The position numbers were made by a program, and so were the translations under genes. A stretch of DNA of 51,682 nucleotides. Source: a virus (lineage: Duplodnaviria > Heunggongvirae > Uroviricota > Caudoviricetes). Each line of letters opens with the position of its first letter. Within the stretch, counting starts at the first letter, position 1. Shown here piece by piece: positions 2,620 through 45,181 of this stretch. The notes below the pieces were generated by a model. It was not told where the DNA came from and searched no databases. It worked only from the letters and a program-made list of their open reading frames with translations. Where the stretch lies: IMG/VR virus record IMGVR_UViG_2651869781_000017, positions 1 to 51,682 of that record. The stretch is one strand, 5' to 3'.

Positions 2620-2843
2620 GCTTTAACCTCCTGCACATCAACCGCATTCACCGCGCTATTGTGTCTCACAGACTTAAGCGCCGCAATGCAGTCTGACTTG
2701 CAAATGCGATATGGGCTTTTAGGTTTATCTGGATTTATCTTTGCTGCCTGAAGTCGTCCACTTCGTATCCACTGCGTGATAGTGCCTTTGTCTACCTTCA
2801 GATACGACGCTGCCTCTTCACGAGTGAAGATTTCTTCTTCCAC
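2496..2843 (-). CDS. xis: excisionase-like HTH protein (GTG start, overlaps int 5' end)
   Basis: 115 aa with excisionase/MerR-type HTH (ASYLKVDKGTITQWIRSGRL); position directly upstream of int. Confidence 0.55.
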   Translation of the reverse strand: MEEEIFTREEAASYLKVDKGTITQWIRSGRLQAAKINPDKPKSPYRICKSDCIAALKSVRHNSAVNAVDVQEVKACQSNYAVARGTAISSRQMDQELDALLKHRTKGKRKNFTIV

Positions 2844-2930
2844 CTGGAATCTCCATTTATTGGATTGGTATTATTGCGGTAGGTCTGGATATCTTGATAA
2901 ATGAAAATGCCTCATCGAGTGTGAGGCGGG

Positions 2931-3275
2931 TTAGTCCTTGCGTAGCTCGCTGATTCTTCTGTAAGTCTCTGGTGCTTTGTTCCCGTACGTCTTCATTTCA
3001 GACTTCAACAGAGCAACGAGTGAATCCCATTCGTTGAGGATTCCTTTGAATGCCGGAACGCGCTTTGCAACCTTGTCGAATGAATCTCTGATTTCTGGAA
3101 TCTGCTCAACAAGTGCAACGCATCGCCGGAAATCGGCTGCGTCATGTGGAGCACCGAAGCTATGACCATAGATATTCTTTTTCAGTCCACATGCGATTGA
3201 GGCAAGAGTTGCGCTACTGATACCGACATCGCTAGTCGATTGCCATTTCAAAACCTTCATAGCCAAATCTGACAT
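2931..3275 (-). CDS. hypothetical protein (ea-region accessory)
   Basis: ORF with GGAGA RBS before the internal ATG (MSDLAMKVLK...); longer ORF reaches 3302. Confidence 0.4.
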   Translation of the reverse strand: MSDLAMKVLKWQSTSDVGISSATLASIACGLKKNIYGHSFGAPHDAADFRRCVALVEQIPEIRDSFDKVAKRVPAFKGILNEWDSLVALLKSEMKTYGNKAPETYRRISELRKD

Positions 3276-3301
3276 TTCTTGTCTCCAATAAAAAACCGCC
3301 A

Positions 3302-3469
3302 TCAGGCGGCTTGGTGTTCTTTCAGTTCTTCAATTCGAATATTGGTTATGTCTGCATGTGCTATCTGCGCCCATATTATCCAGTGGTCATAGCAGTCGTT
3401 GATGTTCTCTGTTTCGATAACCCTGTTGAATGGCTCTCCATTCCATTCTCCTGTGACTCGGAAGTGCAT
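3302..3469 (-). CDS. hypothetical small protein (55 aa)
   Basis: ORF MHFRVTGEWNGEPF... with GGAGA RBS; abuts the neighbouring ORF. Confidence 0.3.
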   Translation of the reverse strand: MHFRVTGEWNGEPFNRVIETENINDCYDHWIIWAQIAHADITNIRIEELKEHQAA

Positions 3470-3549
3470 TTATCATCTCCATAAAACAAAACTCGCCGTA
3501 GCGAGTTCAGATAAAAGAAATCCATCAATTGGTTAGGGTTTTTGTAATT

Positions 3550-3741
3550 CTACGAATTATGTTGTTTTTTAGCTTCAGCTTTCCATTCATCAAAGGCAGT
3601 GTCTTTGTTCATGGTGCTGATATTGATCTTACGGTCAATATCATATACACGCCACTCACCGTTAGGCCTCTCTTCGCATCTAACTAAGTATGAATTGCCA
3701 TTAATATCTATGCGTCTGTCTATTTGCATGAACATTTTCAA
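3550..3741 (-). CDS. hypothetical small protein (63 aa)
   Basis: ORF in co-oriented early-left operon; AT-rich. Confidence 0.3.
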   Translation of the reverse strand: MKMFMQIDRRIDINGNSYLVRCEERPNGEWRVYDIDRKINISTMNKDTAFDEWKAEAKKQHNS

Positions 3742-3852
3742 TTTTCGAATCCTCTTTAATATGCATTTTTTGCTATTTCAGTAGTTTACTATTGATGAGT
3801 CGTTATTATACACACTTCATTAATGCAAGCATCTTTATGCTATGCTACTAAT

Positions 3853-4134
3853 TTAGCAATTGATATTCACCTTTATCGCGTATACCTTTACCGGTTTATC
3901 ACCGAAGTGGGGGTGTGTGATTGTTTTCACTTCATATCCTCCATACGGAACGTTAATTCTGCGGCTGGAATCGTCGCGCTTCGGATATCCCTTTGTGATA
4001 ATCAGGCGGTCATACTTACGATTAACGAGGCGTTTATTCCAGTAGTCATTGCACAGGCGATACTCTTCCGTTTTCTCTCCACGAATTATGGCATCGAAGT
4101 ATTCACCTTTAACGGCTAGTTGCAGGTTAGCCAC
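3853..4134 (-). CDS. ASCH/DUF3850-like small protein
   Basis: 93 aa; N-terminal LQLAVKGEYFDAIIRGEKTEEYR pattern resembles ASCH-fold proteins. Confidence 0.4.
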   Translation of the reverse strand: MANLQLAVKGEYFDAIIRGEKTEEYRLCNDYWNKRLVNRKYDRLIITKGYPKRDDSSRRINVPYGGYEVKTITHPHFGDKPVKVYAIKVNINC

Positions 4135-4996
4135 GGTTAACCTCCTGCGGAGGTTCCGGTAGCGGCATCCAATTGATTACATCGCATTCAGGGATGCTGA
4201 TATCATCACCAAGCCACCCTTGACCTTCAGACCAGCATTGCACGTAATACCCGTATTTTGTGTTCACTACGCACCACTGCGCGTCGTTCGGCGTCCGCTC
4301 ACTACAGCTTATCCAACCATCCGGAGTTACCGGAACTTGCGGAATGGCTGTCTGCTCTCGAACGTCATTAGGCGCTATAGGTTCTGCTGCCAACTGACTG
4401 GCATATTTGTTAATGGTAACGATAAGCTCTTGCTCAGCCTCATCCAGACAATCACCGATACCTCGCCTGTCACCGTCAAAATCATCGAAATCGGCACGAA
4501 TCTTGGCAACCTTCTGGATTGCGGACAACACCTCACTAGGAATTACCGGATAGTTGGTTGACGTTTCCGCGATTTCCCGAAAATTATTGGTTGACGAATT
4601 CTTGTTTTCCCGAAAGTTTCCGGACTGAAGCATGGCGGCGCGGCAGGCGTTCCAGCCTCTCACCTCTGCAATAGCGGCAACAGCATCAACCGCGTACATG
4701 CTAAGAGGATTAGGCATTGGTTTTTCTTCCGGTACTACTGGAACGGGTGGAGCGGCGTAGACCTCAATAATTCCATTATCAATAGGCCATTCTCCATCCT
4801 TGAGGTAGTCACTTGTGCCGTCAACTTGCTGTTCTGCAATGTGGAATGCACCTATTGGTTTTGCTTCCAGCGATGCCAGAGCAATTCGTGCCAGTTCTTC
4901 CGCTTCTTCTGCTGGCAGTACAACGTTGCTACCAGGTCCGTATGTTTCGCGCCACTGTTTGATTGTCAGCAGTCGCTCTTTGGTAATAGTGGTCAT
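4127..4996 (-). CDS. hypothetical protein with C-terminal DUF551-like domain
   Basis: 289 aa; C-terminal DGWISCSERTPND...WMPLPEPP resembles the DUF551 domain common in enterobacterial prophage ea regions. Confidence 0.45.
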   Translation of the reverse strand: MTTITKERLLTIKQWRETYGPGSNVVLPAEEAEELARIALASLEAKPIGAFHIAEQQVDGTSDYLKDGEWPIDNGIIEVYAAPPVPVVPEEKPMPNPLSMYAVDAVAAIAEVRGWNACRAAMLQSGNFRENKNSSTNNFREIAETSTNYPVIPSEVLSAIQKVAKIRADFDDFDGDRRGIGDCLDEAEQELIVTINKYASQLAAEPIAPNDVREQTAIPQVPVTPDGWISCSERTPNDAQWCVVNTKYGYYVQCWSEGQGWLGDDISIPECDVINWMPLPEPPQEVNRG

Positions 4997-4999
4997 GTG

Positions 5000-5149
5000 T
5001 TAGTCCTCTGTAGCAGGTGATACGCCGTAGTTGCATTCTTCATAGAATATGTCTCTGCCTATTTCTTCGGCATCCTCTGGCGTGTCTGCTTCAAACTCAA
5101 CAACCTTGCAATCATTAAATCCTTCGATAGTCACGATGTACTTAGCCAT
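5000..5149 (-). CDS. hypothetical small protein (49 aa)
   Basis: Short ORF tightly packed between flanking genes (4-bp and 2-bp gaps). Confidence 0.25.
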   Translation of the reverse strand: MAKYIVTIEGFNDCKVVEFEADTPEDAEEIGRDIFYEECNYGVSPATED

Positions 5150-5150
5150 A

Positions 5151-5885
5151 TCACTCTCCTTTGATGCGAATGTCAGCGTCAGACATCATATGCAGATACT
5201 CAACTGCATCCTGAACCCATTGACCGCCAATCCCGTAATAGCGATGCGTAATGATGTCGATAGTTACTAACGGGTCTTGTTCGATTAACTTCCGCAGAAA
5301 CTCTTCCAGGTCACCAGTGCAGTGCTTGATGACAGGAGTTTTCCCAGGATGGCGAACAACAAGAAACTGATTTCCGACTTCACGGACTTCGTTGCTTTCC
5401 AGTTCTGCAATGCGCTTCTCTGCGGATTCCAACGCCGCAACCAATTCGTCTACAGTTCCGGCAGCTTGCAGTGCGTAATCGGTAATAGCCATCTCATGAT
5501 CAATTTCAGTACCGTTCTCATTCGTTGAGGTGATAGCAAAATAATCAGAGTCGATTTCGTTATCAGCTAAGTGGCGTAGCGTATCGGCAACAAGCCGGCC
5601 GTTTTCGATTAGCAGCTCCCCTACCGTAAGCGCAATATCCTCGTTCTCCTGGTCGCGGAGTTTTATGTATTGCTGGTTTCTTTCCCGTTCATCCAGCAGC
5701 GCCAGCACGGTTTCTGGTCCGGTCAGAAATTTGAAGGCGTTGAGCGCATCAATATCCACACCGTAATCTTTAAGTTCCTGTTCAGTTAACAAATCATCAT
5801 CAGCTGACAACATTAACAGGCGTTCCATTGCTGGAATTGCACGTTCCGCCGCCTCACGCAGTGCCTGGTAATTAATTTCGCTCAC
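5151..5885 (-). CDS. hypothetical acidic protein (244 aa)
   Basis: ORF in early-left operon; start overlaps upstream gene stop. Confidence 0.45.
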   Translation of the reverse strand: MSEINYQALREAAERAIPAMERLLMLSADDDLLTEQELKDYGVDIDALNAFKFLTGPETVLALLDERERNQQYIKLRDQENEDIALTVGELLIENGRLVADTLRHLADNEIDSDYFAITSTNENGTEIDHEMAITDYALQAAGTVDELVAALESAEKRIAELESNEVREVGNQFLVVRHPGKTPVIKHCTGDLEEFLRKLIEQDPLVTIDIITHRYYGIGGQWVQDAVEYLHMMSDADIRIKGE

Positions 5886-6313
5886 TGGTTGCCTCCTTTG
5901 CGAAGCTGGGCAGCAAAGTCACGGATAGTGTCATCAAGGTCTGGGCACAACAGATGGTCAGCAAACATCTCCACGCCCTGCGCACGTACTTCAGCCAGGA
6001 AAGCATCGGTGGCTGGGGTGTTAAGTGAAAAGTCCTGTCGGCCTGATTTCAGATACGCAATGGCGATCTTTGTTGCTGCACATTCGACAGCGAATTTCTC
6101 TTTTTCAGCAGCCAGCGCCGCGCACTTTGCTTCAAGGTTATCAATCGTGATTCCAGCAGAACGGCACTCCCGCAACGCCGTTTCCAGTTTTGATTCAAGT
6201 TCACCGAACTTACGGACAAGATATTCAGCGTTTGTTTCGTTAACCTTTAAATCTCGTGGGATGCATTTACCTTTCAGAAATCCATCCATCTCAATTAGTG
6301 AGATTTGTTTCAT
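5882..6313 (-). CDS. hypothetical coiled-coil protein (143 aa)
   Basis: ORF with ATGA overlap to the upstream small ORF. Confidence 0.4.
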
Positions 6314-6474
6314 TTCTTCCCACTCCGCAACATCGCATTCAGATATTTGTTTTGATTAACTGATGGAAAAGAATTTCTCTTAAGCAATTCCTCTCTCGAT
6401 GGCATTGGCTTTACGCGTTGGCGAATAATCATTTCTGCCGGAAGAATGCCGGGATTGTATGCAAGTCCTCTCAT
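6310..6474 (-). CDS. hypothetical small protein (54 aa)
   Basis: Short ORF with ATGA-type overlap to downstream gene. Confidence 0.25.
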
Positions 6475-6490
6475 GATTAATTCCTCTTTG

Positions 6491-6805
6491 TTAATTTATT
6501 CGTATGCCTGCTCTTTCTTCATCGAGTTTTTTTAGCTTGTATCTCATAGCCCTTACTGAATAAATTGAGCGGCAGGTTGCAATTGCTATTTCTTCTGCGG
6601 AGAACTTACCGAAAAGTGATACTTCGGCTCTTGTCCAGCGTCTTCCGCGAAGTCGGCTAACAATGTCAGCGCCAATCCTTGTTGCTTTCGCCATTACTGC
6701 TTTTTCAGTCCTTTCCAGTTTTTCAGCGATAACTTCAACTGGCATTGTCGCCGCTACTTCGCGCAAGAAATCGACTTCCCATTTCTCCCATGGAGTCTTT
6801 TTCAT
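6491..6805 (-). CDS. hypothetical protein (104 aa)
   Basis: ORF in recombination-module neighbourhood. Confidence 0.4.
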
Positions 6806-6816
6806 AGGCGATACCG

Positions 6817-7299
6817 TTATTTGATAAGAAGTGAAGGTTTCCCAACCTTGAGTTGAGCGCCGGGGATATTTATTCCTGCTTTTAGTTGGTGCTTGATTGC
6901 CAACTTGTCGGCTTTAATTGTCGTTTCAAACTCAACGTATTCAGGAGGAATGGCGCTTGAGTCGATGATTTCTACAGTTTCTAACGGTTTGCGGATTGTT
7001 ACCTGGTGAATACCTGCTCGAATCTTTTTCTTGCCAACCATTTCAAGCGATGACGCTATATATGATTTGATGCTGTCAATTTTATTTTGAATTACTGCTG
7101 CTCGTTCATTCAGTGACTTTGCCTCTTCCTTGAGGCGTTCAGCATAACCAGATTCATTTTTAATGACGGAAAGAAGTTGCTCTATTTTATCGGTAAATTC
7201 TCCTTCCATGCCTTCTATTGTGTCAGCAATCATCTCTGGTTCTAAATCTGAATCCATCAATTTTGCGTATTCATTGGCAATTTCATACAGTTTGCTCAC
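6817..7299 (-). CDS. Gp157-like protein (recombination-module accessory); probable GTG start
   Basis: About 160 aa helical protein immediately downstream of RecT; GGAGG RBS before GTG at 7299. Confidence 0.4.
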   Translation of the reverse strand: MSKLYEIANEYAKLMDSDLEPEMIADTIEGMEGEFTDKIEQLLSVIKNESGYAERLKEEAKSLNERAAVIQNKIDSIKSYIASSLEMVGKKKIRAGIHQVTIRKPLETVEIIDSSAIPPEYVEFETTIKADKLAIKHQLKAGINIPGAQLKVGKPSLLIK

Positions 7300-8194
7300 T
7301 GGCAACCTCCAGTTTCGCTTTGCATTCTGCATAAATGGCTTGTACGTTCTGCTGCAATTTCATCCCAGATGTCAGGCGATATGCTTCTGCAAAATATCGC
7401 TTCAAATCATCCATGTTTTCAGCCTGAGCCATTTCATCACAAAGAAGTTGTGCTTTATCCGTTATTTCCTGCTGGCGTTTCCGTTCATCTTCGCGGATAT
7501 CTTCCTCTGATTTGTGCGGCATAACTGGTTCAGTCCACACACCTTCTTCTTCGTTTAGTACGTGAATAGCACTATCAAGACGTGATGCCTTAGGCCAATA
7601 CTTGCTTGCACGCTTTACGACCGTCTTTCGCGCCATCTCATTCCAGTGATTTACCCATGGTCCTTTATCGCTGAATGCCGCCTTGCTTGTTTTCCTTACA
7701 GCCTCAATTTCAGCCAGACTCATCTCTTCCGTTAGATAATCACCTGCTGGCGTCTTAACTGTGCAGTAAACGCCAACGATATCACCACGATCACCGAAGG
7801 CGTTGTATTTATGGGTTGGTGCTTTATCAAGCCCGTTTGACTCATAGGTATCGTTAGCATGAACAAGTTTTGCCTGACCCCATGAGATAACACCAGACTC
7901 CATTGCAATATGGAGCAATCCCATATAGCTGATATCAAGGCAAACCATGCCGTCGCGAGGAACCAGATAAGCCAGTTTGCTGGCAGGGTTTAAGGTGATG
8001 CCGATCGCCGCAACATTGATGATGGCGTTCTGTGCGCTGGTTGGATTTGCCAGTGCCGTTTTAGCCAGGTAATCATTTTTCTGGAAATACTGAATTGCAA
8101 ACTGGCTTTCCTTAGCCCATGTCACCGTCTGTTCAGTCAATGCTCCGCAGAATAACTGCTCTTGCTGTTTAACGAATTCAACGATATTGCTCAT
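7283..8194 (-). CDS. recT: RecT-family single-strand annealing recombinase
   Basis: 303 aa; conserved RecT core (AIINVAAIGITLNPASKLAYLVPRDG...) and acidic C-terminus. Confidence 0.8.
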   Translation of the reverse strand: MSNIVEFVKQQEQLFCGALTEQTVTWAKESQFAIQYFQKNDYLAKTALANPTSAQNAIINVAAIGITLNPASKLAYLVPRDGMVCLDISYMGLLHIAMESGVISWGQAKLVHANDTYESNGLDKAPTHKYNAFGDRGDIVGVYCTVKTPAGDYLTEEMSLAEIEAVRKTSKAAFSDKGPWVNHWNEMARKTVVKRASKYWPKASRLDSAIHVLNEEEGVWTEPVMPHKSEEDIREDERKRQQEITDKAQLLCDEMAQAENMDDLKRYFAEAYRLTSGMKLQQNVQAIYAECKAKLEVASEQTV

Positions 8195-8502
8195 GCAGCT
8201 TCTCCATAAATATGTCTGCGTTTGAATATTGCGAAGGCATATTCAGCCTTAACTCTTTCGGTTATTGCATCCCAGAACCATTCAGCGGCTTTTTCCTGAT
8301 AGTTACAGTCATCATCTTCCAGCCAGTCGATAGCGTCCTTAGTGTGTTCATCTGGTTTATATGAGCGAAGCATTTCGCTTATTGGGTCGCAACGTTTGCA
8401 GAGGCGATCAACTTCACTGTTGATTCGTTCGTAATCTTCATCAGTAAAGCTTGCGATTATTTGCGATATTTCACGCTTATCATTCAGAGTCAGAATCATC
8501 AT
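8191..8502 (-). CDS. hypothetical protein (103 aa) in lambda gam-equivalent position
   Basis: ORF directly upstream of recT; function not recognisable from sequence. Confidence 0.4.
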   Translation of the reverse strand: MMILTLNDKREISQIIASFTDEDYERINSEVDRLCKRCDPISEMLRSYKPDEHTKDAIDWLEDDDCNYQEKAAEWFWDAITERVKAEYAFAIFKRRHIYGEAA

Positions 8503-8583
8503 CTTTCTCCTGTTCTTTGTGCTGATTGAGCATTTTGTTCATCTGACGAATGAATTCTTCGTCTGACCAGTTATCTGTAAAAC

Positions 8584-8736
8584 TCATTTCCTGCGATACC
8601 ACGGAAGGTTGATAGCTGATTTCATCGCTTTATTTGCTTCAAGCCACATTTTGGAATCACCAATAAATCTGGCTATTACTGCTTTGTTCTGTGCAGCACG
8701 AAGCATCTGGTGATTGATGGCTATTTCATTGCGCAT
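8584..8736 (-). CDS. small protein in kil-equivalent position (50 aa)
   Basis: Short ORF overlapping cIII 3' end; assignment by position only. Confidence 0.3.
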   Translation of the reverse strand: MRNEIAINHQMLRAAQNKAVIARFIGDSKMWLEANKAMKSAINLPWYRRK

Positions 8737-8852
8737 AATAAGACCTCAACTCTTTTCCATCCGTCACGTAATTTACGGGTGATTCGTTCAAGTAAAGATT
8801 CATTTAATTGGAAGGCACCCATGCGAGCGCCTCCCGCGATTGCGTAAATCAT
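8721..8852 (-). CDS. cIII: CIII-like protease inhibitor (43 aa)
   Basis: Translation MIYAIAGGARMGAFQLNESLLERITRKLRDGWKR... closely matches lambda CIII core (ESLLERITRKLRDGWKRL). Confidence 0.7.
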   Translation of the reverse strand: MIYAIAGGARMGAFQLNESLLERITRKLRDGWKRVEVLLCAMK

Positions 8853-8876
8853 GGGTGGTTCCTTATGTTGGTTTTA

Positions 8877-9845
8877 TTAGTAGGTTATTTTTGTTGCGAA
8901 TACTTCGCCTTTTACGATGGCTGTTATGATATTTTTAGCAACATCTTCTGATGCGCCAACCTTGATAAGGTCAGCAAGTATTTTGTTATTTACTTCTTTC
9001 CGGTGAGCTTTATCCTTTGCTCTACGCTCTTCTTCTTCCTTGATTCTTTTTTCTTCTGCTATTCTGGCTTGCTCTTTTGCTTCAGCCTCGCGCAGGATTC
9101 GTTCTGCCTCCTCCTGTGCTTTACGGCGTTCTGCTTCAATTGCCGCATGCTTTTCTCTTTCAGCTCGTTCTGCTGCCTCTTTTGCTTCGCGCTGTGCTCG
9201 TTGCTCGGCTTCAATGCGTTCACGCTCTGCACGTTCCGCTGCGGCCTTAGCTTCTGCTTCTCGCCTTGCTGCTGCTTCAATTTCGGCTTTTGCCTTTGCT
9301 TCGGCTTCAGCTCTGGCTTTCTCTTCAGCTTCTCTTTTTAAGCGTTCTTCATGCTCTCGCTTTTCCTGCTCAGCTTTGAGTCTTGCCTCTTCTCTTTGGC
9401 GGTCAAATTCGCGATCCATCAAAATCGCTATTTCATGGTCAGACTCAATTTGCTTTGCGAGAGCTTCAGCTGCTGCCTTAGCTTCTTCTTCGGCTTTAAT
9501 CCGCGCCTGTTCTTCCTCATAATCAGTAAGAGGCTGGCGCGCCTTGGCTTTCAGTTCATCAAGGCGATCACGCACTGTCTTGCGGTTGGCATCAATTAGC
9601 TTTGGAATTTCCTTAAGTTCAGCAACAAGGTCTTTGCCAAGACCATCGAGATATGTTTTCGTCTGCGCAACTTTATACGCCAGAGAAGCGATCTCCTTTC
9701 TGCCCTTTGCCGTTGTGATATCAGGCACAAAGGACATAACTTCACGTTCAACCTTTTGGAGAATTTCTTCAATCTGGTCGGCAGACTGAAATACAGTCAT
9801 TGCATTTGCTTTTTCAATAACAACTAAATCTGTTACTTCACTCAT
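8877..9845 (-). CDS. hypothetical protein with long EA/R/K-rich low-complexity coiled-coil region
   Basis: 322 aa; about 110 residues of AEAKAKAEIEAAARREAEAKAAAERAERER-type repeats; GGAGGA RBS. Confidence 0.5.
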   Translation of the reverse strand: MSEVTDLVVIEKANAMTVFQSADQIEEILQKVEREVMSFVPDITTAKGRKEIASLAYKVAQTKTYLDGLGKDLVAELKEIPKLIDANRKTVRDRLDELKAKARQPLTDYEEEQARIKAEEEAKAAAEALAKQIESDHEIAILMDREFDRQREEARLKAEQEKREHEERLKREAEEKARAEAEAKAKAEIEAAARREAEAKAAAERAERERIEAEQRAQREAKEAAERAEREKHAAIEAERRKAQEEAERILREAEAKEQARIAEEKRIKEEEERRAKDKAHRKEVNNKILADLIKVGASEDVAKNIITAIVKGEVFATKITY

Positions 9846-9857
9846 ATATCCTCCGTC

Positions 9858-9885
9858 AAAAAATTGCCCTCACATTGGAGGGCAA
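9858..9885 (-). terminator. intrinsic terminator within early-left operon
   Basis: Perfect 8-bp stem (TTGCCCTC/GAGGGCAA) with 6-nt loop followed by T6 on the minus strand, immediately upstream of the 8877-9845 RBS. Confidence 0.5.
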
Positions 9886-9976
9886 AGAAGATTTCCAATA
9901 ATCAGAACAAGTCGGCTCCTGTTTAGTTACGAGCGACATTGCTCACATAGCAGACTCGCAAATCTGCTATAGGCGC

Positions 9977-10138
9977 TTATTCGCATCGCATGACAACATC
10001 AAATTTTTCGAGATTACTTTGTCGCAACAATCCTTCTTCGACGCGGTCAGCTTTTCTATAATTATCAAATTCGAAATGTTTAATTACTTCTTTCGTTTCT
10101 CGCTCTATAACTTCAACGATGTATTTCTTATTCATCAT
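9977..10138 (-). CDS. hypothetical small protein (53 aa)
   Basis: ORF with ATGA overlap to the upstream gene stop. Confidence 0.3.
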   Translation of the reverse strand: MMNKKYIVEVIERETKEVIKHFEFDNYRKADRVEEGLLRQSNLEKFDVVMRCE

Positions 10139-10425
10139 TCTTCCCAAAGAGCTTTGCTGATTGCTGACTGTGCTTTCGATACTTCATCAGGATAATGGTC
10201 ATTCCAGTTTTGCTTGTATGCCTTGTTTAGCATCGCTTGCAGGGCATTTAAAAGGTCAGGTGCTGCCGCTATTAGATTGGCATCTTCAATGCATTGAACT
10301 TCCTCACAGATTGCAATATACGAACGCCAGCCTGCGCCATTTTCAAGTGAGTCTGCCTGGATGATTTTAATCTCATCGCCATCCATCATTATTTCCCACT
10401 TACCTTCGGTACCTTTAAATTCCAT
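10135..10425 (-). CDS. hypothetical protein (96 aa)
   Basis: ORF in pL operon. Confidence 0.4.
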   Translation of the reverse strand: MEFKGTEGKWEIMMDGDEIKIIQADSLENGAGWRSYIAICEEVQCIEDANLIAAAPDLLNALQAMLNKAYKQNWNDHYPDEVSKAQSAISKALWEE

Positions 10426-10464
10426 GTTAGCCTCTGTTGTTTATGCCAAAAATAAAGGCCACCA

Positions 10465-10716
10465 TCAGGCAGCCTTGTTGTAAATGTTGCAGGTATCAAG
10501 TAAGTAATTAGATGGAGCGCCATAAATTATGAATTCATCGTTTGTCGGGTCCATCTCCATCTCTTGGCCTATTGCCATTCTTGCGTCAGTGTCATCAGCG
10601 GCGAAGCATAAAACAGCCCACGCACCCATTGTTTTAAAAAGAACTGCAATTGGCTGTGGTTTTACTGAATTTGCGTTAGCGCGAAAATCACAAATCGCAC
10701 TTTCATGAAATTCCAT
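10465..10716 (-). CDS. hypothetical protein (83 aa)
   Basis: ORF in pL operon. Confidence 0.4.
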   Translation of the reverse strand: MEFHESAICDFRANANSVKPQPIAVLFKTMGAWAVLCFAADDTDARMAIGQEMEMDPTNDEFIIYGAPSNYLLDTCNIYNKAA

Positions 10717-10724
10717 ATCTCACC

Positions 10725-10889
10725 TCAAATAAGTGGTTTGCCGCGAAAATAAATACGTTCCCACCAAGTTCCGTATCTATCTATCCAGTTACACCAATCA
10801 TCGACACTCCATTTTGTTGTGTCGCATTTTGGCAATTGGCATGAATATCTACCTTCTTTGTAAAGTCGGCGTTTGACTTTCTTGAGCAT
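10725..10889 (-). CDS. hypothetical Cys-rich small protein (54 aa)
   Basis: ORF MLKKVKRRLYKEGRYSCQLPKCDTTKWSVDDWCNW... immediately downstream of N. Confidence 0.3.
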   Translation of the reverse strand: MLKKVKRRLYKEGRYSCQLPKCDTTKWSVDDWCNWIDRYGTWWERIYFRGKPLI

Positions 10890-10897
10890 GGCTCACC

Positions 10898-11203
10898 TCA
10901 ATCGTAATAAGCTGGAATTGATTTTCCGCGTCGCTTCTGGCGGCCTGAGCAGGTCACACCCATTTCACTGCGTGGCTTGCGGTAGTAAATACGGTTCTGT
11001 TTACGCTCAACTTCTTCTGCCTTCTTGCAGCGAAGGCTTCCTAGTGATGCTGCTTTGTCTGCTCTGACGCAACCAGAGAGCTTTAGCGCAATTTTTCGCG
11101 CCAGTCGCTGTTCTTGCATTGCCTGCTCACGTTGAGCCTGTCTGCGTGCTCTGCGGCGATTTCTGGCGTTATCGTCAGCCAGATATGTAATGACTACTGC
11201 CAT
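10898..11203 (-). CDS. N: antitermination protein N (P22 gene 24 equivalent)
   Basis: 101 aa; N-terminal arginine-rich motif; C-terminus ...GVTCSGRQKRRGKSIP matches lambda N ...GITCSGRQKIKGKSIP; GGAGG RBS. Confidence 0.85.
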   Translation of the reverse strand: MAVVITYLADDNARNRRRARRQAQREQAMQEQRLARKIALKLSGCVRADKAASLGSLRCKKAEEVERKQNRIYYRKPRSEMGVTCSGRQKRRGKSIPAYYD

Positions 11204-11310
11204 GTTGACCTCCGATGATTGACTTTGGCGGTGACGCGCCGGGTGCTTATCTTCCGGTTGCCGTCGTGCAGCTGCACTTCACGTCACCCCAAAGCCAACT
11301 ACTCTTTGGT

Positions 11311-11352
11311 TCCCGCATTTCGGCGGGACAATCCCATCAATGTTAAAGAGCC
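11311..11352 (-). promoter_or_regulatory. nutL (boxA GGCTCTTTAA plus boxB hairpin)
   Basis: On minus strand boxA-like GCTCTTTAA followed 14 nt later by hairpin TCCCGC-CGAAAT-GCGGGA, identical to the hairpin at nutR. Confidence 0.7.
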
Positions 11353-11399
11353 TGCCAATCTGTTCCGTTTGGCTTCCAGCGTCCTGCTGATGGCTAAAG

Positions 11400-11484
11400 A
11401 ATACTGTAGGTATTTTATTGTGTAAATACCAAAGGTATTTATTTTTGATGAAATAATGATAAACAAATGAATACAAAGGATATT
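11400..11484. promoter_or_regulatory. OL operator cluster (three AATAC-N5-GTATT sites) with pL
   Basis: Palindromes at 11400-11414, 11425-11439 and 11470-11484 (third has one mismatch); same motif as at OR. Confidence 0.65.
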
Positions 11485-11570
11485 TATTTTTTTGCTGTCT
11501 GCTTGTTCAGTGATTTTTATGCGGGATATGTGAAGTGGATCCCGATAGCTATTGCTGCCGGGATTATGGG

Positions 11571-11939
11571 TTAGTCAGCGAAGGTTAAGACGAGAATTAC
11601 CTTAATGATGTCTGCTACAACAGACACGGCCATAGATAAACCAAAGACGATCCAAGCCACAGTGATGTCTTCACTACCATCGTATAGAGTTCCGTAATCA
11701 CTGGTGTAAGGCGTAAATGTCGCGCCTTGATACAATAGGTATAAGCTTGATCCATAGAGGATAAATGCAGATATCCCTTGTATTGCTATGATCACAAGAA
11801 TCATGAAACGAGCTGATCTATGCGCCCAAGCCTGGCTTATTTTTTCTGATAGAGATTTCGCAATAAAAGCATGCGCTAAGCCGTAAATTGTCGAGATTGC
11901 CAACATCCCAAAAAAGCTTGCTATAGCGGTTCCAACCAT
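11571..11939 (-). CDS. small multi-pass membrane protein co-transcribed with cI (rexB-position cargo)
   Basis: About 122 aa from ATG 11939 (129 aa if the TTG at 11960 overlapping the cI stop is used); four hydrophobic segments; AAGGGG RBS. Confidence 0.6.
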   Translation of the reverse strand: MVGTAIASFFGMLAISTIYGLAHAFIAKSLSEKISQAWAHRSARFMILVIIAIQGISAFILYGSSLYLLYQGATFTPYTSDYGTLYDGSEDITVAWIVFGLSMAVSVVADIIKVILVLTFAD

Positions 11940-11956
11940 AAGCGCCCCTTGCGTGA

Positions 11957-12673
11957 TCAAACCAGCCTTAGTTTTGTCTCAATTGCAACGCCTATAATCT
12001 TGCAGTTTCCATTGATTGGCACGAGAGGCCATGCAGGGTTAAGTCCCTTGAGGTATTTATTTCCGCCGTCGATTATCAGCTTCTTGAATGTTGCTTCGTT
12101 AGAGTCAGAAAGTTTTGCTATGACCAAGCTGCCGTTGATCGCCTCCCTTCCGGTATCGAAAAGAACGAATGTTCCCTCTGGAATGCTTAACCCAACCGGT
12201 GCCGTCATTGAATCACCTTCCACTTTAAGCCAGAACGCATTACCTTGAATATGCGCGTCAGACTCAAGCCAAACATCTATGTCTTTAATGGTGTATGGTT
12301 CGCATGCTTCACACCACGAGCCAGCCTGGATACTGCTTAACACCGGATACCTCTTTCCTGCTCTGTATTCCCCTGCATACCTTACGTTGGCATCGCTCTT
12401 AAGGCTTTCTGCCTGTTCTGCAACCTTGGCAGCAATTGACTGGCTAAAATCAGCAATTGAGACTTGCAACAGTCGTGCAAAACCAGATGCAACCTCAACG
12501 TTTAGCGCGTTTCTGCCATTAAGATAATGCCCTACCGCTCCTTGGGTGATACCCAGTTCATCAGCGATTGAGTATTGGGTTATTCCCAATTCTTTCTTTT
12601 TTGACTCATACAAAGCCTTAAGCCGCTTAGCGTCTTCGAGCTGTTCTGTCGTCAGTGATTTTTTATTTTCCAT
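11957..12673 (-). CDS. cI: CI-type prophage repressor (HTH_XRE plus S24 LexA-like peptidase domain)
   Basis: 238 aa; N-terminal HTH (QYSIADELGITQGAVGHYLNG) and C-terminal S24 self-cleavage domain; divergent from cro across operator region. Confidence 0.88.
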   Translation of the reverse strand: MENKKSLTTEQLEDAKRLKALYESKKKELGITQYSIADELGITQGAVGHYLNGRNALNVEVASGFARLLQVSIADFSQSIAAKVAEQAESLKSDANVRYAGEYRAGKRYPVLSSIQAGSWCEACEPYTIKDIDVWLESDAHIQGNAFWLKVEGDSMTAPVGLSIPEGTFVLFDTGREAINGSLVIAKLSDSNEATFKKLIIDGGNKYLKGLNPAWPLVPINGNCKIIGVAIETKLRLV

Positions 12674-12708
12674 AGCTTAATTCTAATAGCTAAGGTACTT
12701 AAACTAAA

Positions 12709-12980: not shown

Positions 12981-13024
12981 CGCTCTTTAACAGTCATGGT
13001 CCTCATTCCCGCCGAAATGCGGGA
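12981..13024 (+). promoter_or_regulatory. nutR (boxA CGCTCTTTAA plus boxB hairpin)
   Basis: boxA consensus-like CGCTCTTTA followed 16 nt later by TCCCGC-CGAAAT-GCGGGA hairpin; located between cro and cII. Confidence 0.7.
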
Positions 13025-13082
13025 ATACAACGCGCATAAGTTGATGCGCATAACTTCTTATTTGTTAAGGAAATACTTACAT

Positions 13083-13361
13083 ATGCAACTTACAAGTACT
13101 CGCAAGAAAGCGAATGCAATTACAAGCAACATCCTAAATCGAATTGCTGTACGTGGTCAGCGAAAGGTTGCCGACGCGTTAGGGATTAATGAATCGCAAA
13201 TTTCGCGATGGAAAGACAGCTTTATCCCAAAGATGGCCATGCTTCTGGCTGTACTGGAGTGGGGTGTTGAAGACGAGGAGTTGGCGGAACTGGCTAAGAA
13301 AGTAGCCAGAATGCTGACAAAAGAAAAAGCCCCGAAGAACGGCGAATTCTTCGAGGCCTGA
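13083..13361 (+). CDS. cII: CII transcriptional activator
   Basis: 92 aa; ...SQISRWKDSFIPKMAMLLAVLEWGVEDEE... matches lambda CII (SQISRWKRDWIPKFSMLLAVLEWGV); AAGGAA RBS. Confidence 0.85.
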   Translation: MQLTSTRKKANAITSNILNRIAVRGQRKVADALGINESQISRWKDSFIPKMAMLLAVLEWGVEDEELAELAKKVARMLTKEKAPKNGEFFEA

Positions 13362-13395: not shown

Positions 13396-14040
13396 ATGAC
13401 ATACGAAAATGACAAATTCCAGGTTCTGAAGAGCATGAAGGTGCCAGATGATTTTAAATCAAATGGCTTTGTTTATGTGCTTTCGAATGAGTGCATGCCA
13501 GGAATTTATAAGATTGGGATGACTAAGCATTCACCAGAAGTTAGGGCTAAAGAAATTTCAGCCTCTACTGGCGTTCCTAAGCCATTTAAGGTGATAGCAG
13601 CCTTTCATTCAAATAATCCCGCATCAGATGAAAAACTCATTCATAAAGCCTTTGCAAAAGAGAGGCTTAGTGATAATCGAGAGTTTTTCAAGCTTGAAGA
13701 TAATGATCTTTCTGAATCTCTAAATGAAATAAGGGCGCTGGTTGGCCCTGAAAGAAATGGCGAGACGGCAGAATACGCAATTTACGACTCATTCATTTCT
13801 TTTCGCCATGAAAATGAGCTTGATCTTAATGAGGAGCTTATAGAGCAAGGTCTGGGTAGTGTAGTTGGTCATCTTCCTGCGGTGAAAAATTTCCTTATTC
13901 GCGCCGGAATTGCTTACGCGAAGCAACTGATAAGCAAATATAACTCATCGATAGTTATTAATACAGATGGCAGTGTGGTGATGGTTAAGTCTCTTGAAGC
14001 CCAATGCTTTGATGCGGAGGTTGGAAATGAGCCTGGCTGA
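13396..14040 (+). CDS. T5orf172-domain (GIY-YIG-like) protein; moron between cII and O
   Basis: 214 aa; N-terminal GFVYVLSNECMPGIYKIGMTKHSPEVRAKEI...REFFKLE matches the T5orf172/GIY-YIG-like signature; AT-rich compared with flanking genes. Confidence 0.6.
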   Translation: MTYENDKFQVLKSMKVPDDFKSNGFVYVLSNECMPGIYKIGMTKHSPEVRAKEISASTGVPKPFKVIAAFHSNNPASDEKLIHKAFAKERLSDNREFFKLEDNDLSESLNEIRALVGPERNGETAEYAIYDSFISFRHENELDLNEELIEQGLGSVVGHLPAVKNFLIRAGIAYAKQLISKYNSSIVINTDGSVVMVKSLEAQCFDAEVGNEPG

Positions 14041-14893
14041 AGTATTTTACCTGCCGAAGAGTGAACCTGTTGAACAGGAGCGAAGAGTGGCTGATATCGA
14101 TGATGGTTACACCAGATTCGCTAACGAGCTGCTGGAAGCTATCGCAAGTGCCGATTTAACCGCTCGCCAGTTGAAAGTTATGCTGGCCTACGTCCGGAAA
14201 ACATATGGATTCAATAAGAAAACAGATCGAATAGCCGATGAGCAAATTGCTCAGTTAACAGGACTGTCAAGGCAGAATGTTAACAAGGCTAAAAAAGAAC
14301 TGATTTCAATGAATTGCCTGTTTATGGATGGAAATCAAATCGGTGTAAACAGTGAGGTATCTGCGTGGCAATTCAGCAAGTGTCTCCAAGTTAGCAACTT
14401 TGTCTCGAAGTTAGAGACAAAAAATGTCTCCAAATTAGAGACACTCAATGTCTCGAAGTTAGAGACACTCAATGTCTCGAAGTTAGAGACACACAAAAGA
14501 CATTCTTTAAAGACAAAAGAAAATATTAATAAACCCCCTATATCCCCCAAAAAAGTTTCTCAGAAGTTCGACCCGCTAGAAACAGAGTTGCCTGATTGGT
14601 TATCAGCAGAAACATGGTTCTCGTGGGTTACCTATCGCAAGGAGATAGGTAAGTCGATCAAGTCTAAGCAAAGTGTCACTCAGGCTATCAACGTTCTAAG
14701 CAGAAGTCTGGAGAAGGGATATACACCTGAAGAAATTATAAACCAGAGCATCGCCAGTGGTTGGCAGGGGATTTTTGAGCCCAAGACTCCAAAGGGGAAA
14801 TCTCAACCGAGGCCGCAGCATCGAGCTATGCAGGAAAACTTTGCCACTAAAGATTACGGACAAACTGAAATGCCTTCATGGGCGCAGGAGTGA
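14027..14893 (+). CDS. O: replication initiator O (lambda O-like)
   Basis: N-terminal domain resembles lambda O (ADIDDGYTRFANELLEA...RQLKVMLAYVRKTYG); ori iterons lie inside the gene, as in lambda. Confidence 0.8.
   Translation: MSLAEVFYLPKSEPVEQERRVADIDDGYTRFANELLEAIASADLTARQLKVMLAYVRKTYGFNKKTDRIADEQIAQLTGLSRQNVNKAKKELISMNCLFMDGNQIGVNSEVSAWQFSKCLQVSNFVSKLETKNVSKLETLNVSKLETLNVSKLETHKRHSLKTKENINKPPISPKKVSQKFDPLETELPDWLSAETWFSWVTYRKEIGKSIKSKQSVTQAINVLSRSLEKGYTPEEIINQSIASGWQGIFEPKTPKGKSQPRPQHRAMQENFATKDYGQTEMPSWAQE
14381..14560 (+). repeat. phage replication origin: five 22-24 bp iterons (TGTCTCGAAGTTAGAGACA...) plus A/T-rich tract inside O
   Basis: Five tandem iterons, each with internal GTCTC..GAGAC dyad, at 14381-14496, followed by an A-rich segment. 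Confidence 0.75.
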
Positions 14894-15741: not shown

Positions 15742-16028
15742 CTGGAAAAGAAATCATCCTGGAATATCTGAAAACTCATGAACAATTCTCCCCACATGAA
15801 TTAGCACTGATCACCGGAATACCAAATAACAGAATCGCTCAAGCAGCAAGGCATATGGTGAAACAAGGACATTTGAGTGTTGTTGAGCGTAAGTGGAAGA
15901 CGGTTATTTATGCAAAACGCAAAGTGAAGAAGGAGCCAATTAAAAGAAATCCAGATGGTACGGGGTGGGGATGTGCAAATCCAATGACGGCGTTTATTAA
16001 TAGGGCGCTTATGGAGGTAAGGCAATGA
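15738..16028 (+). CDS. hypothetical protein (96 aa, possible winged-helix)
   Basis: ORF overlapping the upstream gene stop (ATGA-type coupling). Confidence 0.4.
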   Translation: MTGKEIILEYLKTHEQFSPHELALITGIPNNRIAQAARHMVKQGHLSVVERKWKTVIYAKRKVKKEPIKRNPDGTGWGCANPMTAFINRALMEVRQ

Positions 16029-16101
16029 CCATCTACATCACTGAGCTAATAACAGGCCTGCTGGTAATCGCAGGCCTTTTTATTTGGGGGAGAGGGAAGT
16101 C

Positions 16102-16542
16102 ATGAAAAAACTAACCTTTGAAATTCGATCTCCAGCACATCAGCAAAACGCTATTCACGCAGTACAGCAAATCCTTCCAGACCCAACCAAACCAATCGTA
16201 GTAACCATTCAGGAACGCAACCGCAGCTTAGACCAAAACAGGAAGCTATGGGCCTGCTTAGGTGACGTCTCCCGTCAGGTTGAATGGCATGGTCGCTGGC
16301 TGGATGCAGAAAGCTGGAAGTGTGTGTTTACCGCAGCATTAAAGCAGCAGGATGTTGTTCCTAACCTTGCCGGGAATGGCTTTGTGGTAATAGGCCAGTC
16401 AACCAGCAGGATGCGTGTAAGCGAATTTGCGGAGCTATTAGAGCTTATACAGGCATTCGGTACAGAACGTGGCGTTAAGTGGTCAGACGAAGCGCGACTG
16501 GCTCTCGAATGGAAAGCGCGATGGGGAGATCGGGCTGCATGA
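16102..16542 (+). CDS. ninB: NinB (Orf-family recombination mediator)
   Basis: MKKLTFEIRSPAHQQNAIHAVQQILPDPTKP... is essentially lambda NinB as remembered. Confidence 0.85.
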   Translation: MKKLTFEIRSPAHQQNAIHAVQQILPDPTKPIVVTIQERNRSLDQNRKLWACLGDVSRQVEWHGRWLDAESWKCVFTAALKQQDVVPNLAGNGFVVIGQSTSRMRVSEFAELLELIQAFGTERGVKWSDEARLALEWKARWGDRAA

Positions 16543-17066
16543 CTATCAAATCAAATACGCCAGCACACGACAAGGACTGCTGGCAAACGCCGCTTTGGCT
16601 TTTTGATGCACTGGATATTGAGTTTGGATTCTGGCTGGATTCGGCAGCGAGCGACAAAAATGCTCTGTGCGCTCACTGGTTAACTGAGGCCGACGACGCG
16701 CTCAATTCTGAGTGGGTAAGCCACGGTGCAATCTGGAATAACCCACCGTACAGCAATATCAGGCCGTGGGTAGAAAAAGCCGCTGAGCAGTGCATACAAC
16801 AGCGACAGACGGTAGTGATGCTTGTGCCAGAGGATATGTCAGTCGGATGGTTCAGCAAGGCTCTGGAGAGCGTTGACGAAGTTCGCATCATCACTGATGG
16901 ACGGATTAATTTTATCGAACCATCGACGGGGCTGGAGAAGAAGGGAAACAGCAAAGGCTCAATGCTGCTGATTTGGCGACCGTTCATCAGTCCTCGACGG
17001 ATGTTTACTACCGTATCCAAAGCGGCATTGATGGCGATCGGGCAGGGCGTCAGGAGGGCGGCATGA
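16539..17066 (+). CDS. phage DNA N6-adenine methyltransferase
   Basis: NPPY catalytic motif (IWNNPPYSN) and DCWQTP N-terminus typical of phage N6A methylases; ATGA overlap with ninB. Confidence 0.7.
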
Positions 17067-17239
17067 GACGACAGCGACGAAGTATCACCGACATAATCTG
17101 CGAAAACTGCAAATACCTTCCAACGAAACGCTCCAGAAATAAACGCAAGCCAATCCCAAAAGAATCTGACGTAAAAACCTTCAACTACACGGCTCACCTG
17201 TGGGATATCCGGTGGCTAAGACATCGTGCGAGGAAATAA
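17063..17239 (+). CDS. ninE: NinE
   Basis: [23 protein letters not shown]... matches lambda NinE. Confidence 0.75.
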
Positions 17240-17241
17240 CA

Positions 17242-17643
17242 ATGCTTTTAATTCAACCTGGATTTGGCCTTAGCATCAAAAAAGGGCACATGTTTGGCGA
17301 GAAAGAGTCTCAACGAAAAATGGTGTCGATACAGTTGCCATTTATCAGTATTTATTGGCTAAACAGGGAGGCAACAAATTATTGGTATACATGCGCCAGA
17401 GCAGCATTTAACGACCCTGACTGGTTTGTGAAAAACCACCACGCAGTTCGTCAGGCAAAGAGAAAGGCCAATACGACATACATGAAGGCGTATCGAAAAG
17501 CATGGAAAGAACACCGCGATCGATACCAACAAGACATGGAAAAGCTTGAATCAGAAAACATGGAATTAAGACGAAAGCTTGGTGAAGCAAAACGAGACAT
17601 TGATGCTTACAAGCGACTTTTTAATGGTGAAAGCCATGCTTAG
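17242..17643 (+). CDS. hypothetical nin-region protein (133 aa)
   Basis: ORF with GAGGAA RBS 6 nt before the ATG; C-terminal coiled-coil; no recognisable family. Confidence 0.4.
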   Translation: MLLIQPGFGLSIKKGHMFGEKESQRKMVSIQLPFISIYWLNREATNYWYTCARAAFNDPDWFVKNHHAVRQAKRKANTTYMKAYRKAWKEHRDRYQQDMEKLESENMELRRKLGEAKRDIDAYKRLFNGESHA

Positions 17644-19176: not shown

Positions 19177-19361
19177 ACGCCACAATTCAAACGATACCAG
19201 AGCTTCTTATCCAGACACGAGGCAATCAGACCGAAGTGGCGAGGATTCTTTCCTGCGCAAGAGGAACAGTGCTCAAGTACAACCGAGACAGCAAAGGCGA
19301 GCGTCACGTAATAGTTAACGGCGTCCTGATGGTCACGCCAGGCAAAAAGGGAAGACGATGA
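19173..19361 (+). CDS. ninH: NinH
   Basis: ...GNQTEVARILSCARGTVLKY... matches lambda NinH (GNQTEVARRLKCSRGTVRKY). Confidence 0.75.
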   Translation: MNATIQTIPELLIQTRGNQTEVARILSCARGTVLKYNRDSKGERHVIVNGVLMVTPGKKGRR

Positions 19362-19981
19362 GACTCGAAAGCGTAGCTAAATTTCATTCGCCAAAAAGCC
19401 CGATGATGAGTGACTCACCACGGGCCACGGCTTCTGACTCTCTTTCCGGTACTGATGTGATGGCTGCTATGGGGATGGCGCAATCACAAGCCGGATTCGG
19501 CATGGCTGCATTCTGTGGTAAGCACGAACTCAGCCAGAACGACAAACAAAAGGCTATCAACTATCTGATGCAATTTGCACACAAGGTATCGGGGAAATAC
19601 CGTGGTGTGGCAAAGCTTGAAGGAAATACTAAGGCAAAGGTACTGCAAGTGCTCGCAACATTCGCTTATGCGGATTATTGCCGTAGTGCCGCGACGCCGG
19701 GCGCAAGATGCAGAGATTGCCACGGTACAGGTCGGGCGGTTGATATAGCCAAAACGGAGCAGTGGGGGAGAGTTGTTGAGAAAGAGTGCGGAAGATGCAA
19801 AGGTGTCGGCTATTCAAGAATGCCAGCAAGCGCCGCATATCGCGCTGTAACGATGCTAATCCCAAACCTTACTCAACCCACCTGGTCACGCACTGTTAAG
19901 CCGCTGTATGACGCTCTGGTGGTGCAATGCCACAAAGAAGAGTCAATCGCAGACAACATTTTGAACGCGGTCACACGTTAG
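19358..19981 (+). CDS. Q: late-gene antiterminator Q (lambda type)
   Basis: 207 aa; translation near-identical to lambda Q as remembered. Confidence 0.9.
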   Translation: MRLESVAKFHSPKSPMMSDSPRATASDSLSGTDVMAAMGMAQSQAGFGMAAFCGKHELSQNDKQKAINYLMQFAHKVSGKYRGVAKLEGNTKAKVLQVLATFAYADYCRSAATPGARCRDCHGTGRAVDIAKTEQWGRVVEKECGRCKGVGYSRMPASAAYRAVTMLIPNLTQPTWSRTVKPLYDALVVQCHKEESIADNILNAVTR

Positions 19982-37927: not shown

Positions 37928-38025
37928 TTCGCTTGGATGCGGCAAAGAAATCAAAACAGTGAAGCCCCAACTGCGGGAACAGTCAGGGCTTCGGTATCGT
38001 AAAACCACGCATAGGAATTAACGAC

Positions 38026-38949
38026 ATGAAAAGTATAGCAACAGCAGTATCTACTATCAATGTACCATTCCACGGCGCAGAGCTTTATGTTGTCAATCAC
38101 AACGGCGAACCGTATACCCCAATGAAACCTATCGTTGAGGGAATGGGGCTAGACTGGAAATCTCAACATAAGAAGATTTCTCAACGCTTCTCGAAGGGTA
38201 TGGTGGAAATCACCATACCTTCTGCCGGTGGGGTGCAAGCCATGATTTGTATGGCTTTACGAAAATTGGCAGCTTGGTTGAACAGCATCAGTCCTAACAA
38301 AGTCCGCCCTGAAATCCGCGACAAGGTAATCCAGTATCAGGAAGAGTGTGACGATGTGCTCTACGACTACTGGACTAAAGGCCATGTAGTTAACCCACGC
38401 AAAGCTAAAAAGGCGTTGCCGGGTAAAATCACCACTGAACAGCAGGAAGCCATTAAACAACTCGTCATGAGTCGCGGTCAGTCTCTGCCAAAAGAAAAAC
38501 AGGCTAAGGCGATGATCACCATGTGGTCGTCACTGAAATCCCATTTTGGATGTTCGTACAAAGAAATCAGTGAGGAGCAGTTTACCGAAGCACTATCACT
38601 TGCAGCTAGAGTTCCACTTGAAGGTGAGTTCATTGGCAAACAAGAGAAGAAAACCAACGAGCTTTCTGCAAAAGAAGCAAACAGCCTTGTATGGTTATGG
38701 GATTATGCCAACCGTTCGCAGGCATTATTCCGCGAACTGTATCCGGCGCTAAAACAAATTCAATCGAACTATTCCGGCAGATGTCATGACTGCGGTTATG
38801 AGTTCTCCCGTATTATCGATATGGCGAGAGATGTTTTAATCAACCATACACGAGATGTTGATATTAATGAGCCAGACGGACCAACGAATCTTTCCGCATG
38901 GATGAGACTTAAGAATAAAGAATTACCTCCTTCAGTACATAACTACTGA
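38026..38949 (+). CDS. ant: antirepressor Ant
   Basis: 307 aa; AntA-type N-terminal domain; immI position downstream of arc. Confidence 0.7.
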   Translation: MKSIATAVSTINVPFHGAELYVVNHNGEPYTPMKPIVEGMGLDWKSQHKKISQRFSKGMVEITIPSAGGVQAMICMALRKLAAWLNSISPNKVRPEIRDKVIQYQEECDDVLYDYWTKGHVVNPRKAKKALPGKITTEQQEAIKQLVMSRGQSLPKEKQAKAMITMWSSLKSHFGCSYKEISEEQFTEALSLAARVPLEGEFIGKQEKKTNELSAKEANSLVWLWDYANRSQALFRELYPALKQIQSNYSGRCHDCGYEFSRIIDMARDVLINHTRDVDINEPDGPTNLSAWMRLKNKELPPSVHNY

Positions 38950-45152: not shown

Positions 45153-45181
45153 TTGACAAATGTTTCTTTATATGTAATAAT
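45153..45181 (+). promoter_or_regulatory. sigma70-like promoter (TTGACA, 17 bp, AATAAT) upstream of 45292 operon
   Basis: Consensus -35 with 17-bp spacer to an A/T -10 hexamer. Confidence 0.45.

Follow-up and report, generated by a model that had tools for sequence, protein, structure and literature searches.

An orphan phage Dam-family methyltransferase identical to M.EcoVT2Dam in the nin region of a P22-like lambdoid prophage

An intact orphan methyltransferase gene was found among the nin genes of a P22-like lambdoid prophage; its product is identical to M.EcoVT2Dam of prophage VT2-Sakai. The gene lies within the stretch of DNA analysed here, 51,682 nucleotides in full and referred to below as the window. 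We consider it very likely that this gene encodes a GATC-modifying Dam enzyme, carried as a nin cassette and made as an N-dependent delayed-early product, which would top up the methylation of phage DNA. Integrity, family, identity and genomic context of the gene were computed; the GATC target was taken from the literature, and the timing of expression and the benefit to the phage are what we infer. The annotation of the window was assembled from Pfam, PHROGs and PADLOC profiles, and the features on which the argument turns are collected in Table 1.

Table 1. Positions of the methyltransferase gene, its motifs and the associated features in the window
Feature	Position	Strand	Basis
Orphan phage N6-adenine DNA methyltransferase gene	16539..17066	+	Intact ORF, 175 aa plus stop
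ninB (orf-family recombination mediator), upstream	16102..16542	+	PF05772, 1.1e-54; ATGA overlap with the methyltransferase gene
ninE, downstream, start overlapping the methyltransferase stop	17063..17239	+	PF05322, 7e-44
Motif IV NPPY, catalytic, adenine-binding, residues 68-71	16740..16751	+	Read in the sequence
Motif I-like F-W-L-D-S-A-A-S, residues 31-38, end of the first beta strand	16629..16652	+	Conservation
Terminator-like hairpin and T tract upstream of ninB (tR2-like)	16054..16087	+	Hairpin scan
N-like antiterminator gene	10898..11203	-	phrog_271 'anti-termination protein N-like', 1.5e-35
Lambda-type Q	19358-19981		Family match

The gene and its slot between ninB and ninE

An ORF search with translation placed the gene on the plus strand, from the ATG at 16539 to the TGA at 17064-17066. 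An earlier note on this DNA, made from its sequence, had set the limits at 16539-17066, and these are exact. The longest possible reading frame starts at a GTG at 16479. This start was rejected, because the matches to the two family HMMs set in within residues 2-4 of the product that starts at ATG 16539, and RefSeq and GenBank both annotate the ATG. We took ATG 16539 as the start because the TIGR01712 match covers the whole model from residue 2. The gene is real, intact and correctly placed, and most of the earlier interpretation holds. Its start codon overlaps the stop codon of ninB (gcATGAct, 16539-16542) and its stop codon overlaps the start codon of ninE (gcATGAga, 17063-17066), and such tight ATGA packing is typical of nin genes (PMC8022706).

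Comparison with lambda by blastn revealed that window positions 16010-16542 are 97.2% identical to the segment comprising the end of ren and ninB, and that positions 17070-17236 are 98.2% identical to ninE. The methyltransferase gene between these two blocks gave no blastn alignment with lambda. The gene order in lambda is NinB-NinC-NinD-NinE, where ninC and ninD together take up approximately 1012 bp, against 527 bp here. Since the flanks align and the middle does not, the methyltransferase gene occupies the slot of ninC and ninD, with mosaic junctions at the ATGA gene boundaries. A replacement of the ninC/ninD segment had been proposed before, and the near-identical flanks on either side of the methyltransferase gene confirm it. 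Lambda ninC (PAPS-reductase-like) and ninD resemble this gene in their place within the PR operon, flanked by ninB and ninE, and in the same ATGA packing, but they are unrelated to it; the relationship is one of cassette replacement and not of homology. This swap is a textbook lambdoid cassette exchange.

The same cassette recurs in other mosaics. The block from dam to ninE was 98.4% identical to VT2-Sakai DNA, while the ninB of VT2-Sakai did not align with the window (both by blastn). E. coli WS4437A-1 has a 100%-identical gene in a further mosaic, whose replication genes differ. Beyond ninE, the window continues downstream with a gene of no known function, ninF, an antirepressor gene, YbcO, RusA, ninH and Q. 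A 133-aa ORF between ninE and ninF (17242-17640, + strand) matches phrog_1511 and no Pfam family above cut-off; related prophages carry NinX at this position.

The neighbours of the methyltransferase gene are thus NinB and NinE, both with overlapping codons, and no restriction-enzyme gene is adjacent. Its best PADLOC match was to the orphan methyltransferase (oMTase) models, at 3.6e-19. Profile scans of the Pfam, PADLOC and PHROG type detected no restriction-enzyme family among the window ORFs that were scanned, which make up a part of all ORFs. The gene encodes a solitary methyltransferase, as had been proposed, and has no restriction enzyme encoded beside it as in a Type II arrangement. One might still regard it as the modification half of a prophage restriction-modification or other defence system, given that PADLOC also returned weak matches (4.3e-07) to models of Type II methyltransferases and that prophages do carry restriction-modification systems, such as EcoGIII of a Stx phage (PMC6602927). 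We consider this very improbable: the orphan models score better in the same search, a partner gene does not fit between the methyltransferase gene and NinB or NinE, whose stop and start codons overlap with it, and the identical cassette is found between ninB and ninE in unrelated mosaics.

Family, motifs and predicted fold

Profile searches placed the protein in the Dam family of phages T1, HP1 and VT2. PF05869 (Dam; Pfam) matched with 218.4 bits against a cut-off of 28.1 (E 6.4e-65) over model positions 1-167 of 169. The equivalog TIGR01712 (phage N-6-adenine-methyltransferase; NCBIfam) matched with 265.9 bits against a cut-off of 97.05 (E 9.7e-80), and its alignment spans model positions 1-165 of 165. 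The PHROG search returned phrog_111, 'DNA methyltransferase', at E 8.6e-88. The protein is a member of PF05869/TIGR01712, and these matches, together with the motif read directly in the sequence, bear out the proposal of a phage N6-adenine methyltransferase with NPPY.

Among all ORFs of 100 aa or more in the 51.7-kb window, no [DNS]PP[YFW] motif occurs besides this NPPY. In an alignment of 43 homologues with 59-86% identity, N68, P69, P70 and Y71 are invariant, and so are F31, L33, D34 and A36 of the motif I-like segment, where the AlphaFold model has a strand at residues 31-36. In enzymes of the (D/N)PPY type, the first strands bind AdoMet at their carboxyl ends and the flipped adenine is held by NPPY. 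D34 would be the AdoMet-binding acidic residue. Other positions invariant in these 43 sequences include T17, P18, F29, P97, D99, W104, D113 and E114, as well as R116, G121, K139, G140 and W146-R147-P148.

A search of a large protein collection yielded 265 homologues, all with PF05869, from Escherichia, Pectobacterium, Edwardsiella, Serratia, Yersinia, Providencia, Photorhabdus and other hosts. Members of PF05869/TIGR01712 were present in 2134 phage records, among them those of virulent T1-like phages. The founder of the family, T1 Dam (ST20, YP_003925.1, NC_005833), shares 33% identity with the window protein across 158 aa, along with the W.TP, LD.AAS, NPPYS and GN.KGS motifs, so that both the motif I-like segment and the NPPY are conserved between the two. 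T1 Dam is longer (237 aa): its N terminus is extended by approximately 45 residues, and an insertion precedes the C-terminal hairpin. It is encoded by a virulent siphovirus outside any nin region.

A phmmer search of the PDB gave nothing at E<=1 apart from two chance matches, and thus no relative detectable by sequence; the family has no solved structure. Because this search found nothing significant, the structure was predicted and searched by fold. The AlphaFold2 model (mean pLDDT 81.7, pTM 0.82) shows a compact domain in which beta and alpha elements alternate; confidence is low for a loop at residues 45-51, and a beta-hairpin region extends over approximately residues 121-146. Its best PDB neighbour in Foldseek was PCIF1/CAPAM (probability 1.0, TM 0.57, weak E of 6e-3, 12-17% identity), and further weak neighbours were METTL4, METTL3-14, the EcoR124I M subunit, BrxX, CamA and E. 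coli Dam. The top PDB fold neighbours were all N6-adenine methyltransferases, with modest scores. At this level of similarity, the predicted fold is that of a class I (Rossmann-like) AdoMet-dependent methyltransferase, and the model suggests an amino-methyltransferase catalytic core without a separate target-recognition domain. The conserved hairpin G121-G140 may be the element that reads GATC.

With PCIF1/CAPAM first among the Foldseek matches, followed by METTL4 and METTL3-14, methylation of RNA adenines instead of DNA has to be weighed. We give this reading hardly any credence. The fold match is confined to the shared N6-adenine methyltransferase core, with 6e-3 as the best E value, and the Foldseek matches also include DNA enzymes (the EcoR124I M subunit, BrxX, E. 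coli Dam and CamA). The family members T1 Dam and VT2 Dam act on GATC in DNA according to PMC6602927 and PMC4996451.

The classical Dam enzymes of E. coli and T4 (alpha class, MethyltransfD12) have the same reported GATC target, N6-adenine chemistry, a (D/N)PPY motif and orphan status in common with the window protein, but homology to them was not detected. The protein had no Pfam match besides PF05869 at E<=0.01, and the PDB search, which included the E. coli Dam structures 2ore and 4rtl, did not match E. coli Dam at E<=1. Structural overlap with E. coli Dam was confined to the core (TM 0.31-0.32), and E. coli Dam has a separate DNA-recognition domain, whereas the 175-aa window protein is without one. 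The window protein is a functional analogue of classical Dam from a different family.

Identity to M.EcoVT2Dam and the reported GATC target

BLASTP revealed that the protein is identical, at 175 of 175 residues, to the product of dam (H0105, BAA94133.1) of the Shiga-toxin phage VT2-Sakai, a gene which occupies the same slot between ninB and ninE. The two genes differ at 8 nucleotides (1.5% synonymous DNA divergence), and all 8 differences are synonymous, which indicates purifying selection. In the first 50 kb of the 65.5-kb VT2-Sakai record (AP000422), dam at 16989-17513 was the single significant tblastn match and the only gene annotated as dam or methyltransferase. A second methyltransferase that could be the real M.EcoVT2Dam was sought and found neither in the window nor in this part of the record. 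The same gene is carried by 933W (L0094) and many Stx1 and Stx2 phages. The host mosaics of VT2-Sakai and of the present gene differ; here it resides in a P22-like non-Stx prophage at thrW, with a ninB of the lambda type (97%).

PMC6602927 terms M.EcoVT2Dam an orphan methyltransferase of prophage VT2-Sa and states, citing Radlinska & Bujnicki 2001 (pmid 11720311), that it 'is known to target 5'-GATC-3''. The earlier note had called the target specificity unknown; with full identity to an enzyme reported in that account to be GATC-specific, this claim has to be dropped. By the same identity, the window protein would be a stand-alone, AdoMet-dependent Dam that methylates the adenine of GATC, the reported mark of its counterpart and the same site as that of the unrelated host Dam. 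Its presumed biochemistry rests on identity to a tested enzyme, and its biological role is deduced. The relative M.EcoT1Dam modifies G(m6A)TC. Another relative, M.Btr190III, methylates GATC and, when cloned, other sites as well; its gene is probably silent in its own prophage (PMC4996451). VT-2, HP1 and P1 are listed among phages with Dam-like genes, and GATC-specific methylases can be typed by DpnI/MboI digests of DNA from a dam- host, as described for another phage enzyme (PMC7556043).

The small size of the protein and the absence of a separate target-recognition domain from its model, in a family where no solved structure defines how GATC is read, would also suit an enzyme of relaxed specificity. 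Such an enzyme would methylate GATC and near-cognate sites, or adenines broadly, in vivo, and would act as a broad anti-restriction device. We regard this as quite unlikely. The identical M.EcoVT2Dam is reported as GATC-specific in the account cited above, and the methylomes of strains with two copies showed only GATC, CTGCAG and CRARCAG, although the prophage gene may be silent there (PMC6602927). In lysogens, the contribution of a prophage Dam is inseparable from that of host Dam (PMC6602927). The truly non-specific Hia5 group, moreover, differs in its motifs, with DPPY plus FxGxG (PMC3299994).

Hia5/M.HindVII and M.EcoGII resemble the window enzyme in being prophage-encoded orphan m6A enzymes thought to protect phage DNA. 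Hia5 belongs to another family, with DPPY, a canonical FxGxG motif I and a region resembling a target-recognition domain (PMC3299994), and it modifies nearly all adenines (PMC4996451), in contrast to the GATC specificity reported for the enzyme studied here. A link to this group was rejected on the grounds that the motif arrangement differs, and PMC3299994 makes no mention of VT2, T1 or HP1 Dam.

Prophage context, expression and role

The window starts in proA and contains the tRNA-Thr(CGT) gene (thrW) at 1369-1444. A 47-bp exact direct repeat at 1399-1445 and 41393-41439 corresponds to the 3' part of this tRNA gene. These repeats mark attL and attR of a P22-like lambdoid prophage of approximately 40 kb at thrW, next to proA. 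The prophage combines a lambda-like early region (integrase, RecT, N, CI, CII, O, a DnaC-type loader, nin genes and Q) with a P22-like virion module (gp3, portal, coat and tailspike head-binding domain). Every segment of window positions 1-25000 has matches at >=95% identity among complete E. coli RefSeq genomes, and none of these genomes covers more than 60% of that region in one place. The prophage is therefore a new mosaic combination with respect to these genomes.

Several other features of the window were recorded. A sar antisense RNA (37958-38024, - strand; Rfam RF00262, 76.6 bits) lies directly upstream of a P22-type antirepressor gene (P22_AR_N/C; 38026-38949, + strand), and the prophage thus keeps a secondary immunity region like immI of P22. 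Between cII (12996-13361) and O, a gene at 13396-14040 (+ strand) encodes a 214-aa protein with a T5orf172/MUG113 (GIY-YIG-like) N-terminal domain and PADLOC matches to PDC-S57, a candidate defence family (6.4e-29), and PD-Lambda-1 (8.6e-12). It may be an anti-phage moron of the prophage, unusually placed within the PR operon. The O gene (13994-14893, + strand) encodes a protein with four tandem copies of NVSKLET (DNA at approximately 14395-14510), and the hairpin scan detected hairpin-like repeats at 14422-14446 inside it; by analogy with lambda, these repeats are probably origin iterons.

Past attR, positions 41440-51682 hold a second, small phage-like island in tandem with the prophage. Its genes include a serine recombinase (42749-43288, - strand), a replication-initiator-like HTH protein (45719-46411), a major capsid protein (48512-49540) and many small ORFs lacking a family match. 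In E. coli DSM 103263 the same island of approximately 12 kb adjoins thrW directly, the P22-like prophage being absent, and has genes for a 'baseplate protein' and a tyrosine integrase at its end. We found at least 80% of the island in 255 complete genomes; a satellite or a capsid-encoding chromosomal island is a possible identity for it.

Within the prophage, the arrangement around the methyltransferase gene suggests how it is expressed. The hairpin upstream of ninB (16054-16077) has an 8-bp stem with 6 GC pairs and is followed by TTTTATTTGG. It sits in the 97% lambda-identical block, in the homologue of the lambda ren-ninB intergenic region, and it would be the counterpart of lambda tR2. A consensus scan of 8 kb found 4 promoter-like sites, against 11 expected by chance from shuffled sequence, and none between the hairpin and the methyltransferase gene. 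An own promoter for the gene was rejected for these two reasons. By analogy with lambda, PR transcripts would require the N-like protein to extend into the nin region. The ATGA coupling, the tR2-like terminator upstream and the lack of a convincing own promoter together argue for delayed-early timing. The methyltransferase gene is translationally coupled to ninB and ninE. Most likely its product appears only once N antitermination has taken effect, in lytic growth or upon induction, among the delayed-early proteins of the PR operon. In the repressed prophage the gene is expected to be silent or nearly so, as the comparison with lambda suggests.

Dam methylation is incomplete in virion DNA of both P22 and lambda, 'possibly because replication outstrips modification' (PMC8022706), and for this reason a top-up of methylation is the most economical role for the enzyme. 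Dam made at this stage would complete the GATC methylation of fast-replicating phage DNA where host Dam has left it unfinished. With full methylation, progeny genomes would be safe from GATC-cutting, methylation-sensitive restriction enzymes, and would depend less on the Dam status of the host. The prophage contains 137 GATC sites, against 251 expected from a second-order Markov model and 198 from base composition, in agreement with the GATC avoidance known in enterobacterial prophages (PMC6602927). This depletion leaves fewer sites to protect and counts against the top-up role. Other 4-bp palindromes in the window also fall below Markov expectation (CTAG 0.43, GGCC 0.51 and GTAC 0.65, with GATC at 0.55), and the left arm (1459-12700) has 20 GATC sites where 41-52 are expected.

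Other benefits can be envisaged besides the top-up of methylation. The enzyme might bring about off-target or hyper-methylation during lytic growth, as in the case of M.Btr190III, or it might serve in counter-defence against DpnII-type systems or systems whose sites overlap GATC, such as GATCAG enzymes, or in the control of lysogeny stability. Taken together, we judge these roles unlikely. A study by Murphy et al. in 2008, cited in PMC3342100, is said to have dealt with host Dam and 933W lysogeny.

The gene might also be a redundant passenger, active on GATC but of no measurable benefit in Dam+ enterobacterial hosts and kept by its linkage within the nin mosaic. The host already methylates approximately 99.9% of chromosomal GATC sites (PMC6602927), the nin genes of lambda are non-essential (PMC8022706), and many lambdoid phages, including lambda and P22, have other genes in this slot. 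We consider this rather unlikely. The protein is perfectly conserved despite the synonymous divergence from VT2-Sakai. At >=95% identity, megablast detected the gene in 244 phage records, mostly of Stx1- and Stx2-converting phages, with mEp213 and Sf101 among the rest; 1566 of 5426 complete E. coli genomes also carry it. The whole family extends over the 2134 phage records mentioned above, virulent T1-like phages included. Perfect conservation and wide spread argue for selection, and we retain the top-up of GATC methylation as the preferred reading.

In the phage records the gene is nearly always annotated as DNA N-6-adenine methyltransferase and located between NinB and NinE; in the E. coli genomes its PGAP name is 'phage N-6-adenine-methyltransferase' (RefSeq WP_000153280.1). 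It encodes an already known, characterised enzyme and is a very common prophage gene. The questions that it raises belong to the family and not to this locus: why so many enterobacterial phages carry a Dam mimic when the host has its own Dam, and how GATC is recognised by a small enzyme without a recognisable target-recognition domain or a solved structure. For annotation, the gain is that the target can be stated as GATC instead of 'unknown', and new methylome motifs in a lysogen should not be attributed to this methyltransferase gene.
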